Shown: positions 5,001 to 59,479 of the stretch, in pieces | Numbering within the stretch: the first letter of the stretch is position 1 | How the letters are laid out: every line of letters begins with the position of its first letter | Assembly (NCBI GenBank): GCA_965113315.1 | Contig: OZ220372.1 | Reading direction: 5' to 3' (one strand) | From: Podarcis vaucheri | Lineage: Eukaryota | Length of the DNA: 64,000 nucleotides | The notes under the pieces: generated by a model | The model's database searches: none | What the model was told of the DNA's origin: nothing | The model's input: the letters and a program-made list of their open reading frames with translations, nothing else | Made by a program: the position numbers and the translations under genes

Positions 5001-5509
5001 GTCAGGAAAGACAGCTTCAAATGATTCATTTCTGGCGTCACTCATTTGTTGCATGGAGCATTTGTAAGCCAAAGAAGAAGAAAAACAGCCTGTGTTCAAA
5101 TATTATTATTTTATAGATCCCCACCATTCCTGACCAAGTACTGTGAATGAAAAACCAGTATGTATTCTTGTGTTGTGATAAGAGCTAGAAGTTTACATTC
5201 TGTAAATGTGCGGTTCATGTTATTAAAAAGTGCAATTAATATTTATCACATAGTTTCTTTTATTTGCCATACATGCAATAACTTCAAAAGGAAAAGAAGA
5301 TCAGGGGGGGAAATGCAGCTCTTTCATGCCAAGATGCAAGAGGATTCCTTGTGAACAAAACTGTGTTCACCACTATGCATCAAATCAAATCAAAACTTTA
5401 TTAGCAAAGCCAACAGGCCACAGCTGTACAAAAATTAAAAATGAGAATAGGGATAAAAGGAAGAAAAGAACAGACAAAAGGAGGTCCGTCGGGTGAACAG
5501 GTCTGTCAC

Positions 5510-6472
5510 TCAGATGGTGGCCCTAAATTTCACAGCTCTCTCGATGTACCTCGCGACCTTCTCTGTTATCTGACTGTTCGTATCAGATAATAGAAAATGC
5601 AGTGTAATGTCTGTTGAACGGCCGGGGTTGGAGAGAATGAGTGGAGTAATAATCTCATTCCTTAGGTCTTTGTAAAGAGGGCAAGAAAAAAGGACGTGGG
5701 ACACTGTTTCCGTGTTACCATCTCCACATGGGCAGAGTCGTTTTTCAAATGGGGTCTTTTGGTAACGACCTTCGAGTACAGCAGAGGGAAGAACATCCCA
5801 TCTGGCCAATGTAAAGGCGCGTCTGTATTTTGGGATGGTTAGTTTAGACAAATATGAGGCTGGAGAGTCAAAATGAGAAGGGGGAAAGTAGGTATACCAT
5901 GGGCACAGTTTCTTTAAGATAGTCAGGTTGTTTTGTCGTTCGATGTCTTTCAGGCGCTGGCCTATTAGACTCTTTGCTTTGATGAGGCCCATTGATAGTA
6001 GGGACTGTGAGTGCAGACCGCATGTAAGGAGTTTTTTATGCACAGTTTTAAACCACTTGCTTTCGTAAGGATCTTGCATTACTAACGGCAGTAGACCAGG
6101 AGGATTCAGATTAAGACGAAGCCAATAATTAAATGTTCTCTGCCAGGTCCGAGTTTCCACAGATGGAAGGCAGGCCTCGAGTCGCAATGCTGCGTTTGGA
6201 ACACAGGGGGGGACACCGAGTATTTGCCTTAGAAATTTGGACTGGACAGTTTCAAGACTGGAGCAATGGGTCCCCGTCCAGATTTGCGCCCCGTACAATA
6301 ACTGCGCCAGAGGTTTTGCTTGATAAACTTCAAGGGCTGCTGGGATGTATCTGCCCCCCTTCGTATAGAAGAAGCGGGACAGCATCTTGATGCTTTGAGC
6401 AGCTTTTTCTTTGGCACATTTTTGGTGGACATCCCAGGACCCGGTCGACTGGAAAACGATACCCAGATATTG
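5510..6472 (-). pseudogene. C-terminal fragment of LINE ORF2 (RT 'YLG' region, thumb, CCHC zinc finger)
   Basis: Open frame from QYLGIVFQSTGSW through LLYGAQIW to GRY...RLCPC...ETVSHVLFSCPLY, ending in TGA. Confidence 0.9.
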
Positions 6473-6512
6473 CTCACCGTACCTGTAAAAAACTCACCGT
6501 ACCTGTAAAAAA

Positions 6513-7766
6513 TATTGGCAGAAGCTCTTTAACCTTCTTCCATCCCTTTCTACAAGTGGAAAAAACAAATCCAAGTCGAGTGCCATCAAAGAGACACGTA
6601 AAGTAGATACTCCCATAAAAGAATCTAAATCAAGTTCTGAAGAATCAACACCGAGCTGGGACAAAGGAACTGATCCATCTGCAGTCATATCGCCCCAGAG
6701 TCCTCTCATGGCCAGCACAGAATCAGTAGACAGAGGTGAGCAGGCGACCCAAACTATCGAGGGGAACCACTCCTCTCAAGTTCGACAGATGTTGTGTCCC
6801 AAAAGAGAATGGAGTTTAGTCCTAATCCCACAAAAGCTTGTCTTTGCTAATTACCCTAAACCGCCTAGATTTTACGCAGGGTTGGACCGTACAGACCACT
6901 TTTTGTCCATTATAAGTGGCATTTTACCGGGGGTAGTAAAAGCAACTGACATAGCCGCTATAGAGTATCTACATCAAGATGATTGCTCGGTACGAGCACT
7001 GATTACTTTTTTAGATCATAATCTGGCCAGTTTCATTTTTAGAGCTAAAAACCTATTCAAAAAAGAAAGAATAGTTCTGTTAAGAATATTTGAAAATAGA
7101 GCACCTGCAACCCCTCTGATAGGGCCCAAGAGCATAGGAGTGGAAGTTCACAAAAGGGAAAAAACCAACCACCAAAACCATCGAAATAGAAAGTATAAGT
7201 TCCAGCAGGATCATCCCCACCAAACAGCACCAAATGAAAAAAAGGAAGCCTCACACCCAACTGGCGTCGAGCCTCCCACGTGGGACAGTGAGGACTCCGT
7301 TTGGGAGGAAGAACTCTCGCTGATAAAGCGATTCTGGTCACTGCATTCTCCAGCTCAAACTGAGATCCTGAAAAGATTTGATTTACTTCGAAGCAGACTA
7401 GAAAAAAAGGATGATCAAGGTGAGACAATGAAGGACCCTTATGTGCAGCCTATATCTCCCAAATGTCTGGTGGATAAGAAGACAGTGGGAGGCACCTTTA
7501 AATGTGTGGACGTGGAATTACAATCAGAGCCCCCTGTGATGTACAATAAAGTAAGACCAAAGCAAGGTGTGAAACCTCAAAGCTCCTGGCACAGCTATCT
7601 TAAATTGTCTCCGAATGAATTAGCTTCCCCCCCAACTCCAAAACCTAGCCCCAAATCACCAAGAAAAGAGGATCACTACACTCTCTCCAAGCAGCCAGCC
7701 TCGAAAAGAACCAACGGGTGTGTTTTTTTAGACACCAAAGAATTGCTGGACATGGTGGTGACATAG
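6513..7766 (+). pseudogene. LINE ORF1, 5'-truncated (frame already open upstream of ATG 6708)
   Basis: Stop-free frame from the inversion junction to TAG 7766, directly upstream of and overlapping ORF2. Confidence 0.75.
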
Positions 7767-9777
7767 ATCCAGCCCCCCGAAGGGCCCGGGGCCTAAAAGT
7801 GCTGTCCTGGAATATCGCGGGCTGGCACGCCAAGAAAAATAATCAACAATTTTTGTGTTACCTTAAGCAATTTGACATCATCTTCCTTCAGGAGACATGG
7901 CAGAATGACCCTATATTTCTTAATGGGTATAACTGCCACTACCTGCCTGCCTCTCCATCTCAAAGGGGCGGCAGATCTAGTGGTGGCCTAGCTTGCTTCA
8001 TTTCCACGGAGCTAGCGCACTCCCTAACAGCCCTACCCAGCTGCAACTCTTTAGCAACAGCCGCCCTACTTAGCTTCAAGAGAACTATTCTCTTGCTGGT
8101 CAATGTCTATATCCCCCCAGGCCAAAAAAAACCCGTTGTTAAGGCTACATGGGCTGAGCTAGAGGCGTTTTTAGAGCCACTCGAATCTATTTACCCGTCT
8201 GCCCTGACCATTGTGTGTGGAGATTTCAACGCTCGTATAGGGACAGATGACAACAGTCTACACACTCATTTCAACCAATTTTTGGACACTGAAGAACAGA
8301 CGGATATTGGCGCGACACGTCTGTCCAAAGATAGTAGAAGTAATTTCCCAGGTCTCTGCTTAGTGCAGGCTGCTAGACGGAGGGAACTGCTGATATTAAA
8401 CGGCAATATAGAGGGGGACCGCCCCGGGGAATATACCCATTTCTCCAAGGCTGGGGGAAGTGTTATAGACTATATCTTAATCTCAAGATTTGCTCACAGC
8501 TTTATAAGGAAGTTTCAAGTGGGCCATAATACTCTGAGTGATCACCTACCTCTAATTTTAGAGCTTGTAGGCGGGCCTTTTGACTATTCTATTGCCGAGC
8601 CACAATATATACCTTCTGTAAATTTGGATATACCAGCCCCCAAAAGACTCAAATGGTCCCCAATATTGAATGAAAACCTAACCCTCCTTCTTCAGTCAGT
8701 GGAGTTAAAGCTTATTCGCTCCGCTATTGTATCAGGAAATTCAGCAGCTGCGATTATGGAACGCTTTAAATTACTCTTGGAAAGATTGAAACCCCATTTA
8801 ACAACAGTGATACATAGCTCCGCTACAAAGAGGGCAAAGGACGGAGCTAGCTGGTTTGACCTGGAGTGCAGGCAAACAAGGAGACAAATGAGAACAGCCT
8901 ACCGGAGATACAGGAAATCAGGGACTGCTCTCCTACTCAACGCTTATATTTATCTGAGACGGTCGTATAAACAATTATTAAGGAGAAAGAAACTGGAAGC
9001 TGAAAGAGCCGCATGGCACAGGTTGGTTAAGGCATCGCACGAGAAAGATACTACTTGCTTTTGGCGAACCATATCTGGTCTACTGGACCAGGAGCGCACT
9101 AATTCCATCTGTACAGTGGAACCAATGGAGTGGTTGCGCCATTTTCAATCTTTGTTCTATGACCAGGAAGCCCAACATTACAAACTATGCATTCAACTGG
9201 AGGACCTACCTCATTGGCCAGCAGTAACTTCGAAGGAAGTTGAGAACTTAATTGTACAATTAAAGAACAACAAGGCCCCAGGGAATGATTACATCCCTGC
9301 CGAACTTCTGAAGTCCAACATTGGCTGGTGGGCCCCCCTGCTGGCGTCTTTATTTTCTTGGATCGACTCAACGGGTTTACTCCCAGATGGTTGGACTGAG
9401 GCAATAATTATCCCAATCTACAAAAAAGGTCCCATGACAGATCCGGCGAGTTATAGACCAATCAGCCTTCTGCCTATACTCAGCAAACTATATGCCAAAC
9501 ATCTTTATACCAAGCTAACTAGCTGGCTGGAAACTGAAGCTATTCTAGCGGAAGAGCAAGCGGGTTTCAGGCAAGGCAGATCCACCATAGACCATTGCTT
9601 CACCCTAGCCTATTTAATTGACAAATATGCCAAAAAATCCCGTGGGGTGTTATATGCAGCCTTTATTGATCTAAAGGCTGCTTTCGATTCAATTCCACGT
9701 GTAAGACTCTGGGATAAATTGAGCACCTCTAGCATAGACAAAAGACTATTATTTCTGATCAGCTGTTTATACAAAGA
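7718..9777 (+). pseudogene. N-terminal part of LINE ORF2 (APE endonuclease and early RT domains)
   Basis: SWNIAG, LQETW, NVYIPP, GDFNAR, IDYILIS, SDHLPL (APE); KAPGND, YRPISLL, EQAGFR, FIDLKAAFDS (RT); broken at the TSD. Confidence 0.93.
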
Positions 9778-12044
9778 CACCACTATGCATTATTTTTAAC
9801 TTACCGGTATATGTAATGAAATGGGACAATAGCACCCTCTGTTTCAGTATTTCTAAATTATAATTTCTGAGAGATCCAACAGAATTTGAAAATGTACTGA
9901 CAAAAGGAACAAAAGCAACAACTTCTAAGTAAAGATGTAAGATATGTATGAATATAGATACAAATTATGTGTATCAAAGTAACAGCAAAAATGAGACAAA
10001 ATATTCTGAACGAATACGGCAACCAGTGCCACAGCAGACATTATGCACGTTTAAAAGAAAGTTTCCTTAAACTGTTATTTAAACACCTGCGTACTTTAGT
10101 CACACGATATAATTTTGCAGTTAATCTTTGTTACTACAACTTCTGTTACTACGTTTTTTTAGTTGTGTACCAAAATAGAGATATTTGGAAATTAAACTAA
10201 ATTGGTAACAGGGTACAAATCTGCAAAATATCCCTTAATAAACATATTTGGATATGTCAAAGATATAGTAGGATTAGTGGATGCAGAGCAAGTCAATATA
10301 CTTGCAATAAATATACATTTAATCATCTGTTACAATTAGAAGAAATAATTTATTCTCAAGGTGGGTAAGTAAGTAGATTATAAGAATTTGGAAACTGGTC
10401 CACAGGGTAAAGTTAACATTGGAAGGGTACTTGAAGGTAAACAGACTGCTTCATTTTTACTAGTGTAAATACTAATCAGATATTCATCCATACAGGCTAT
10501 TGGAAACAAGTTAGTGATTTATAGAATAATTCGTTTGCTCAGCAGTTTTTATGGTTCCTTTTACGTTCCTTTTGTTGTTGTTGTAAAAACTAATTATGCA
10601 TACTTGAAAACTTTTTTTATACTTGTATGTTATACCAATAAAAAACCCCACTAATTTGAATAAAGATGTAAGGTTTATGTTATTTAAAATCTAGGTTTAA
10701 AAATAAAGTTCTCCTGAATTAATATCCATGTTTTCCCCCTTCAACATGCTCCCACATTTCTGAGAGATGAAAATTTTCAAGGGTAATACTACAGTATTTT
10801 GTTTCCTTTGGATGAGAATGCGCTAGAGACTTGGGGCAATGTTATTGTTTGTTTTATTTACTAATCTACAGGACGAGCATATCAGAAACACACAACAAGT
10901 AGCTAATCTTCTAGCCCTACGAAAGGTTTTCAGAGCATGCCCTTGCATTCAAAATCGCTTCACTTTTAGCCAGTTTATAGCTCCTTTCTCCCCAAATGTA
11001 AAATTGCAGCAACTTGTTTCAAAGTTTTTTTCCTATCTCTTCTCCAACCAGGTTGGTGAGTATTTGCATTATGTCATTTGGGTTGTATTCATGGAACATC
11101 ATTTGCCATCAGACAAAGGATAAGATCCCCATATCCATAATACAGCTATGTCCATATATGAAATACAGGACAAGGAAGAACTGCACTTAAACCAAATGAT
11201 AAATGACCTGGGAAAGAAAATAAAGAGAATCTTTAACAAGAGGAAGAGTAGAATGTAAGCATAAAACTGCCAGTGTCTTCTCTAAAGTGTGCTGCAATAG
11301 AGAGAGCAGTTTCAAAATGCTTCAGAAAGTGATCAAGGGGGTTGAGCAACAGCCCCATGAGGAACGATTACAACATTTGGAAATTGCTCTCTAAAACTTA
11401 GTAGAAGTGCCAATTATCCAAATAAGTTGGATTGCGCCATATGAACGGGGCCACAATTGTTAGTATTGTTAATACCTGCCTTCTTCAAGATTCTTTCTCT
11501 TTCTCTCACATCGTGATTTCTGTTTCTGCGCCCTTCCCTTGCCACCCTCAATTCCAAGGCAAATATTCAACATTTCCCCATCCCCCCATCTTCAATAATC
11601 CCAAACACATGCACATAACAGAGTGCATCCTGTCCTGCTATATACACACATCCCAACAGATCCCAAACTTGTCAGAGAGTAGCTCCTAAGTACGTGCTAC
11701 CGATTTGGTTCAGAGGAGATTAATAGTAGAAACCGCCAACATGGTGCCCCCTCCGGAAGTTGTGAGCTACACCACCAGTCACTCCCAAGCATTGGTCATG
11801 CAGGCCGGGACTGATGGGAATTGTAATTCACAACATCTGGAAGGCACCATGTTGGCCACCGTTTCTGTAGCACAAATGTAGGCAATGTCTAGGAAACCTA
11901 AGGCCAGGTGCCAATATTTCCCAGTGTCTAGGGACAGAGATGCACATCCATGAATTTGGCAGCTGGTGTTGACTGAACCTGACTTTGACAGGGCAAAAAA
12001 CACTGAGGATGATTGCTTTTAAACTCATGGAAGTTAGGTTTAGT

Positions 12045-58310: not shown

Positions 58311-59479
58311 TTATAAGTGCTTAGCTGGTTTTATATATGCAATTGTGGACCAGGTGGTAAGACAGTAGCTACTTTTTTGAGCTTTGTAAGGATGCTGTAT
58401 GGAACACTCATGTGGGCCCACTCACACATTGCAGTATTGCATGCAGTGAAACCTAAGTTCTTATCCAAAATATTGGGGACACCTAGATCTATTCTAAGGA
58501 CCTAGACAATTCTAAGGAAATTGCCTGATTAAAGATGGCTTTCATTCAGTGGGAATGCTTACCCAGAAAGTGGCCATCACCTGTTGGCTTAAGACAGTCT
58601 TTTGGCTTCACTTTTGGTTTTATTGGTATCTGAGGATTTGAGGAGTGATTCCTGGGAAGCTATGATGTATGCACTTTTTACTATTTGGGCTTTTCATTAG
58701 CCCACTTGATTATGATGGGCTGCAACTGTGCTCAGTTCTCCAGATGACTTGACTGATGTCAATTTTCAGACCACTATGGAACTGACTGCTGGGTGCTGCT
58801 CCAATACAATATATAAAGATTTTGTCACTCTTCCTGGGAAAGTGCCCCCTTCCTCACATGAGCTAAGATGGCTCCTGATTAATCCTTACAGCTGATGATG
58901 GTGAAAGGAACTATGGGACTCAGTATGGCGAGGCTAGAAATTGCCCAGCTGGATGCCCCAAAGTAGAGGACTTGGCACACTTTTTAACAGAATGCCCTTT
59001 GTATTCAGATTTAACTATTTTGATATCTCAAGCCCTTAAATGTGGGGATGAATAACATTTCTCTCTAAGTATAACTCCATTCCTATTGGCCACTAGAGAT
59101 CACAACAAGTCATACAAGGGCAGCCAAATGTGTCAGATTGGCTCATGAATACACTGAAAGCAACTTTGATCACCCAGCAATGGCTATCAAGTTATATAAC
59201 CAGTCATCAATACTCCTTTATTGGCAGCGCTCACAAAATATTCTGGGGATCGAAAACAACATTGGGACAGCTTGATAGCATCGATATAACTGGAGGCATC
59301 TAACAATTTTTCAAGAAATTACAAAAATATGCAGAGTGTATGATCAAAAGGACAAAAGTATGCAAAACAATAAAAAATAGCTCTACATACGCATCAAGAA
59401 AGCTGATTTTTTTACTACCCAGGAAAAGATTTTGAAAGGTTCACTGAAAACATCAACTTAATGTGCTGCAGTGGAGAAA

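Follow-up and report, generated by a model that had tools for sequence, protein, structure and literature searches.

The first and second open reading frames (ORF1 and ORF2) of a young LINE family of the lizard Podarcis vaucheri overlap without an AUG codon from which ORF2 could be started in front of its endonuclease, and this layout is real and inherited as a family trait and does not arise from a sequencing error. The copy described here lies in a 64,000-nucleotide stretch of contig OZ220372.1 (assembly GCA_965113315.1), which is called the window throughout. With ORF2 in the -1 frame relative to ORF1 and with the heptamer U_UUU_UUA in the phase of ORF1, the AUG-less overlap is a fair candidate for -1 ribosomal frameshifting, while the pseudoknot that has been proposed to stimulate it is doubtful.

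A 5'-inverted LINE copy and its relatives

The LINE copy with the junction extends from 5381 to 9777 and is bounded by a 13-bp target-site duplication, recognized by sequence comparison and assigned to no strand, of which one copy flanks the 3' end of the element (5368..5380) and the second flanks the inverted 5' segment (9778..9790). A 3' tail of short pentanucleotide repeats has been read from the sequence on the minus strand (5381..5394), with an AATAAA nearby on the same strand (5397-5402). The copy is 5'-inverted, the minus strand (5381-6472) holding the 3' part of ORF2 with the tail and the plus strand (6492-9777) the 5' part. The minus-strand piece of ORF2 (5510..6472) corresponds to residues 817-1136 of the related full-length protein P0001, with 95% identity, and includes a C-terminal Cys/His knuckle and a weak match to zf-RVT (Pfam, E 0.087). 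Next comes the joint of the inversion, where 20 nt are duplicated in tandem (6473..6512; no strand). On the plus strand, ORF1 occupies about 6489/6492..7766 with residues 217-640 of a 640-aa family protein, its 5' part being lost; the overlap with ORF2 spans 7649..7766, and the apurinic-type endonuclease (APE) and the first part of the reverse transcriptase (RT), up to about residue 691 of P0001, have been placed at 7793..9777 by Pfam and by alignment to relatives. Since residues 1-216 of ORF1 and, internally, residues 692-816 of ORF2 (about 125 codons) are missing compared with full-length relatives, the copy is dead, and its ORF1/ORF2 junction mirrors that of an active parent element.

The inversion, the 13-bp duplication of the target site, the internal loss and the 20-nt duplication at the joint (5368-9790) together make up the pattern of twin priming. 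Inversions of this kind have been described as almost limited to L1 in cell assays (PMC4245944); the LINE here resembles L1 in the RRM of its ORF1. The sole other LINE remains in the window are decayed old 3' fragments of a related element at 58317-59118. The window begins with the 3' part of an apparent SINE, which we take to be of the Sauria type, followed by a short tandem repeat (1-330). In a GC- and CpG-rich region (1600-2240), open frames overlap and a splice donor may be present near 2229; the region has the appearance of a promoter or a first exon, and a Pfam search with its 246-aa frame gave no match.

The element is an APE-type non-LTR retrotransposon (LINE), as seen from an ORF2 with APE and RT, an ORF1 of the RNA-binding type with a predicted RRM, the target-site duplication and the repeat tail. 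ORF2 matches Exo_endo_phos (E 3e-14) and RVT_1 (E 9e-14) in Pfam, the APE match covering residues 52-299 of the ORF2 frame (about 7802-8545). No Pfam match was obtained for ORF1 of the window copy and no usable one for the ORF1 family. The RRM of the window ORF1 is predicted at about 6816-7097, and a structural comparison of this model with 48,161 chains puts human L1 ORF1p first (Z 8.7, rmsd 2.3, 86 residues), with L1 ORF1p matches at Z 8.7 and 8.4 and the best unrelated chain at 7.2. A Foldseek search with the predicted ORF1 structure gave no match at E 0.001, and a search of the ESM Atlas gave no usable match. Beyond about residue 372 of the window ORF the prediction is of low confidence, with a pLDDT near 40 in the junction tail.

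Relatives in the same 90% cluster derive from Podarcis muralis and farther relatives from Zootoca, Rhineura and Anolis. The ORF1 family of 600-800 aa (including P0051-P0083) spans lacertids, Rhineura and Anolis and also possesses a helical hairpin and, close to the C-terminus, the conserved motif W...L...ELG. The 22 squamate-type ORF2s group together in a single clade (SH-aLRT 100) when 45 RTs are placed in a quick tree, and this clade may be RTEX. RTEX elements have been reported to be present in amniotes (PMC5753468).

The AUG-less overlap in the young family

The first-pass annotation had described ORF2 as lying in the -1 frame and overlapping the end of ORF1, as having no ATG before or within the endonuclease domain and as sharing with ORF1 a correctly phased T_TTT_TTA, and each of these statements holds for the window copy. 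The -1 frame is open from 7649, 39 codons upstream of the ORF1 stop (TAG, 7764-7766), to 9799, and the first ATG in the ORF2 frame occurs at 8756, beyond the APE domain. The heptamer (7724..7730, plus strand) is read in ORF1 as GTT (7722), TTT (7725) and TTA (7728); it sits within a run of seven T (7723-7729) followed by AG, 12 codons before the ORF1 stop. The arrangement is that of an X_XXY_YYZ heptamer in the zero frame with an open -1 frame after it. The relatives P0001, P0040-43 and P0033 have a Met inside the APE domain at about residue 190, which is too late for a whole endonuclease. The ATG at 7752, considered as a start of ORF2, was rejected as it belongs to the ORF1 frame and is replaced by Val in four of five Logan ORF1 proteins.

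Homopolymers are prone to suspicion, and one extra T would fuse both frames; the T run could have lost a base, in sequencing or by slippage, from a fused ORF, or the ATG of ORF2 could have been lost in this copy alone. Such an artefact or private mutation is largely refuted and can be given a vanishingly small probability. The interval 7300-8200 is covered in run X1 by a single contig (depth 851) that has two substitutions and no gap. Record 12 of run X5 covers 7494-7839 with five substitutions, all of them listed and none within 7645-7773, and record 19 of run X7 differs by 15 substitutions without a gap, with none of the 13 that are listed falling into the same interval. The dominant contigs of these three runs represent three organisms. 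Among the 40 of 61 variants and 24 of 63 records listed for four runs, no indel or joint is found at the junction; the RNA run X23 contributes 9 reads in total and 0 over 7703-7733.

Equally, the proteins of 16 contigs hold the phase. Logan ORF2 proteins starting in the overlap with C-F-F-R amount to five of six (16 of 17 contigs), all five Logan ORF1 proteins end with V-F-L-D and a stop shortly thereafter, and in four of four ORF1/ORF2 protein pairs, two of them joined by equal lengths of the source contigs and two by likeness, T_TTT_TTA is forced by the reading of both frames. None of the 22 ORF2 clusters of the clade exceeds 1136 aa in a search that was open to 1988 aa and scored 8000 candidates, so that no fused ORF has been encountered. 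The heptamer, the conservation of which across copies had been proposed as a check, is thus kept in the young family in contigs of three organisms and in all four protein pairs, and neither an ATG upstream of the APE domain nor a single fused ORF, both named beforehand as arguments against frameshifting, was found in this family.

Variants are mostly silent (12 of the 20 ORF1 variants and 8 of the 9 ORF2 variants, for 29 classified among the variants listed, a count that omits 11 variants of diverged records at 8132-8158), and both ORFs are therefore under selection. In the linker a single variant is seen, at 7774, and it leaves the ORF2 protein unchanged. A second subfamily (record 2 of X1 and record 20 of X7), diverged by 7-9% in ORF1, is represented by contigs that end at 7717 and 7729; at this place, the slippery site, it may merge with the main family.

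By itself, the presence of the heptamer is weak evidence. Any phased heptamer is met in the overlap by chance in 12-16% of controls, and the element contains seven phased heptamers in 1396 codons. In favour of the site, Val-Phe-Leu would be encoded as the heptamer with a probability of just 0.028 under the codon use of the element. A second phased U_UUU_UUA(-G) is located mid-ORF1 within the RRM (7007-7013); it is not conserved, the Zootoca protein having F-T there.

Possible frameshifting, reinitiation or splicing at the junction

Even when no stimulator is present, the bare U6A site shows a low rate of slippage, and the same heptamer U_UUU_UUA is found at the 6K/TF site of alphaviruses. From the sequence, we lean slightly towards a synthesis of the ORF2 protein (ORF2p) through low-level -1 frameshifting at U_UUU_UUA. 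Most ribosomes would terminate at the UAG at 7764 and deliver the ORF1 protein (ORF1p), while a few would slip by -1 at the heptamer and continue via a linker of about 22 codons into APE and RT, giving an ORF1-ORF2 fusion. The slip, which we infer from the observed layout, would most likely depend on the U-run, with RNA structure contributing little or in an unusual way. The need for ORF2p is believed to be very small (PMC3894237), and U_UUU_UUA is the slippery site of HIV-1 (PMC5009743). HIV-1 gag-pol is alike in that the identical heptamer stands in phase close to where a structural, RNA-binding ORF ends, and leads to a polymerase; the lizard LINE differs in having neither a stem-loop at 5-9 nt nor a protease to cut the fusion. 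Of the retrovirus-style fusion suggested by the first-pass annotation, the AUG-less layout and the heptamer have survived in the young family, whereas the pseudoknot as stimulator is not supported, and an AUA at the ORF1 stop, overlooked in that annotation, competes as a site of reinitiation.

The stimulator is the weak point of frameshifting. The pairings CACCA (7733-37) with TGGTG (7753-57) and GCTGGA (7745-50) with TCCAGC (7768-73) do exist in the order of an H-type pseudoknot (7733..7773, plus strand), and the spacer between the heptamer and stem 1 is 2 nt, in agreement with the caveat raised when the structure was proposed. Its role as stimulator is, on the other hand, unsupported: with a 2-nt spacer, stem 1 of the pseudoknot as drawn would be inside the ribosome, and stem 1 is broken in the Zootoca family, where P0052 breaks two of its five pairs. 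The spacers of frameshift sites are usually 5-9 nt long, shorter ones favouring -2 over -1 slippage, with 3 nt in antizyme and 11-14 nt in the protein-stimulated sites of cardioviruses and arteriviruses (PMC5009743); a -2 slip at the present heptamer would meet the UAG at 7729 at once. No stimulatory pseudoknot starting 5-9 nt downstream of the heptamer was found. The form of lowest energy is a hairpin at 7745-7773 (-11.2 kcal/mol), 14 nt past the heptamer; plain folding of five downstream segments was not above shuffles (z -0.14 to -0.59), and Rfam gave 0 matches. From the strictest to the loosest rules, an 11-pair pseudoknot occurred in 3/1000, 2/500, 19/500, 16/500 and 77/500 shuffles, the thresholds having been set after the stems had been seen; the pseudoknot is unusual by strict rules and ordinary by loose ones.

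Among the variants listed, all four in 7731-7774 (7741, 7752, 7761 and 7774) miss the 22 paired positions, for which the chance is about 1 in 16. All five stem-1 pairs are allowed by the protein P0075, with both partners altered in one pair; of the six stem-2 pairs, P0075 breaks one. Stem 2 is broken by the loose ends of two low-depth diverged contigs, which are possibly decayed.

The spacing of the hairpin 14 nt downstream equals that of protein-stimulated frameshifting in cardioviruses. A far-reaching extension would be a squamate LINE clade devoid of an ORF2 start codon that produces its RT solely as a Gag-Pol-like fusion, with the slip of the present family switched by the RRM of ORF1p on this hairpin and the level of ORF1p setting the ORF1p:ORF2p ratio; as a whole, we regard it as quite improbable.

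Alternatively, ribosomes might stop at the UAG at 7764 and restart without an AUG at the AUA at 7763 or at GUG/CUG at 7799/7802, further near-cognate candidates in the ORF2 frame, with GC-rich hairpins helping; ORF2p would then be a separate protein and the heptamer incidental. Such termination-reinitiation is the main rival and, if on balance somewhat less likely than frameshifting, a serious possibility. It stays alive because the near-cognate AUA in the ORF2 frame overlaps the UAG of ORF1 (7763..7766, plus strand), and reinitiation is the sole route that has been tested in LINEs. An AUA in this frame, however, needs just an A before the UAG and could thus easily be there by chance; a true AUGA or UAAUG is absent, the near-cognate AUA being alone. 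Hairpins are present 3' of the ORF1 stop but are no stronger than in shuffles (z -1.6 to +0.3). Reinitiation of the TURBS type uses a UGGGA motif upstream of the stop, and none occurs in 7600-7766.

A structure downstream of the stop-start is required in SART1, L1 tolerates other sense codons in place of the ORF2 ATG whereas Zorro3 does not, and viral reinitiation from near-cognate codons has been described to reach about 45% (PMC5972666, PMC10275272, PMC1965478). SART1 of Bombyx, with UAAUG coupling, resembles the lizard LINE in the missing intergenic gap and, possibly, in structure 3' of the ORF1 stop; it differs by a real AUG, where the lizard LINE has an AUA over the stop and a -1 frame open 39 codons upstream. 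Mammalian L1 is alike in that its ORF1p is the nearest match of the predicted ORF1 RRM and in that its AUG is dispensable; as described, it differs in a 63-nt spacer, a kept AUG and ORFs without overlap.

Splicing would likewise explain a kept U-run. The T7-AG at 7723-7731 could act as a 3' splice site that joins an upstream exon with an AUG to the ORF2 frame, and a crude scoring of pyrimidines gives it a share of ranks 2-6 among the element's 108 YAG sites. Retrotransposed spliced copies would be expected to show in DNA, and no joint or listed loose end is seen at 7732 in three DNA runs; splicing is considered very improbable. The top-scoring YAG acceptor by the same crude score is the site at 7007-7013.

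Diverged families and precedents

In the diverged families, N-G-x-(V/I)-F-L-D is retained by the proteins P0052 of Zootoca and P0075, where it stands in register with the window ORF1, and the ORF1 stop is found at 7764 in the window and at places matching 7770 and 7800 in P0052 and P0075. A candidate site that is fixed while the stop moves is as predicted by frameshifting and not by stop-start coupling; P0075, in addition, cannot have the AUA there. As the ORF1 tail is predicted with low confidence, no fold explains the kept F-L-D, which in these families is an observation at the protein level and may be a short protein motif. F-L-D is confined to three of 13 ORF1 families, the other 10 being without it, and no surplus of slip-compatible tripeptides is found where the 13 clade ORF1s end (0.063 vs 0.055). 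AUG-less starts look clade-wide, yet F-L-D is restricted in this way, which speaks for reinitiation.

Among the ORF2 proteins of the clade called within the first 60 residues, eight of 12 start inside the APE and four of 12 upstream, a hint that the AUG might be missing clade-wide. The upstream-starting ones, known as proteins, are P0001 (the window has GTG there), P0002, P0003 and P0098, with the called Met of P0002 and P0003 lying 15 and 31 residues ahead of APE motif I. At the position equivalent to 7784, just before the APE, the ORF2 frame is interrupted by a TAA in one low-depth diverged contig, which is possibly decayed. In two diverged contigs with loose ends at 7751-7787, the position equivalent to 7761 holds an ATG of the ORF1 frame, displaced by one base from the called Met of P0002; a genuine start of ORF2 may have been acquired or lost here in a sister family.

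Several other candidates carry no weight. A diverged contig of X1 that matches just 7707-7752 is perhaps a 5'-truncated old copy; its six differences are the minimum for a Zootoca-like peptide and would imply an unchanged heptamer. An N-L dipeptide noticed by eye near several ORF1 ends failed in a count, and MAFFT did not recover the likeness, seen by eye, between N-G-S-I-F and an S-N-V-S motif in distant ORF1s. In scans for DNA of the diverged families, metagenomes gave 60 distant loci with best segments 21-45% identical and 0 of the squamate clade by eye, and prokaryote genomes gave 0; viral contigs gave 0 with ORF1 and one distant with ORF2.

A -1 shift in LINEs has already been claimed, which had been missed by the first-pass annotation: ORF2 of TRE5-A and TRE3-A of Dictyostelium is said to need a -1 frameshift (PMC5911963). 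These elements are alike in having two ORFs and an ORF2 with APE, RT and zinc finger; they differ in being amoebal and targeted to tRNA genes, with no slippery site or assay given in the passages on them, the element here being that of a vertebrate with an HIV-type heptamer. For groups 1-3 of the non-LTR elements of Paramecium, synthesis of ORF2 via frameshifting, reinitiation or readthrough has been proposed (PMC5405496); there, the shift is +1 or in-frame and has been deduced from consensus sequences alone. In the open-access literature, no report of frameshifting in this lizard LINE family, or of its testing in a vertebrate LINE, was found, and the cases named in the available part of a frameshifting review do not include a vertebrate LINE (PMC5009743); older papers on CR1/T1-type elements may have proposed frameshifting.

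With respect to the translation of LINE ORF2, the tested cases L1, SART1 and Zorro3 all point to initiation events. The present vertebrate LINE is young and multi-copy, its HIV-type site is invariant and an AUG is missing; for its short cassette, frameshifting and reinitiation predict opposite outcomes. If the slip is true, ORF2p would be born tethered to ORF1p, which would bear on cis preference and on the stoichiometry of ORF1p to ORF2p, and half of the endonuclease would be lost from gene models in which ORF2 begins at an internal Met. If confirmed, a vertebrate LINE with an HIV-type heptamer would extend the -1 shifting claimed for the TRE elements.
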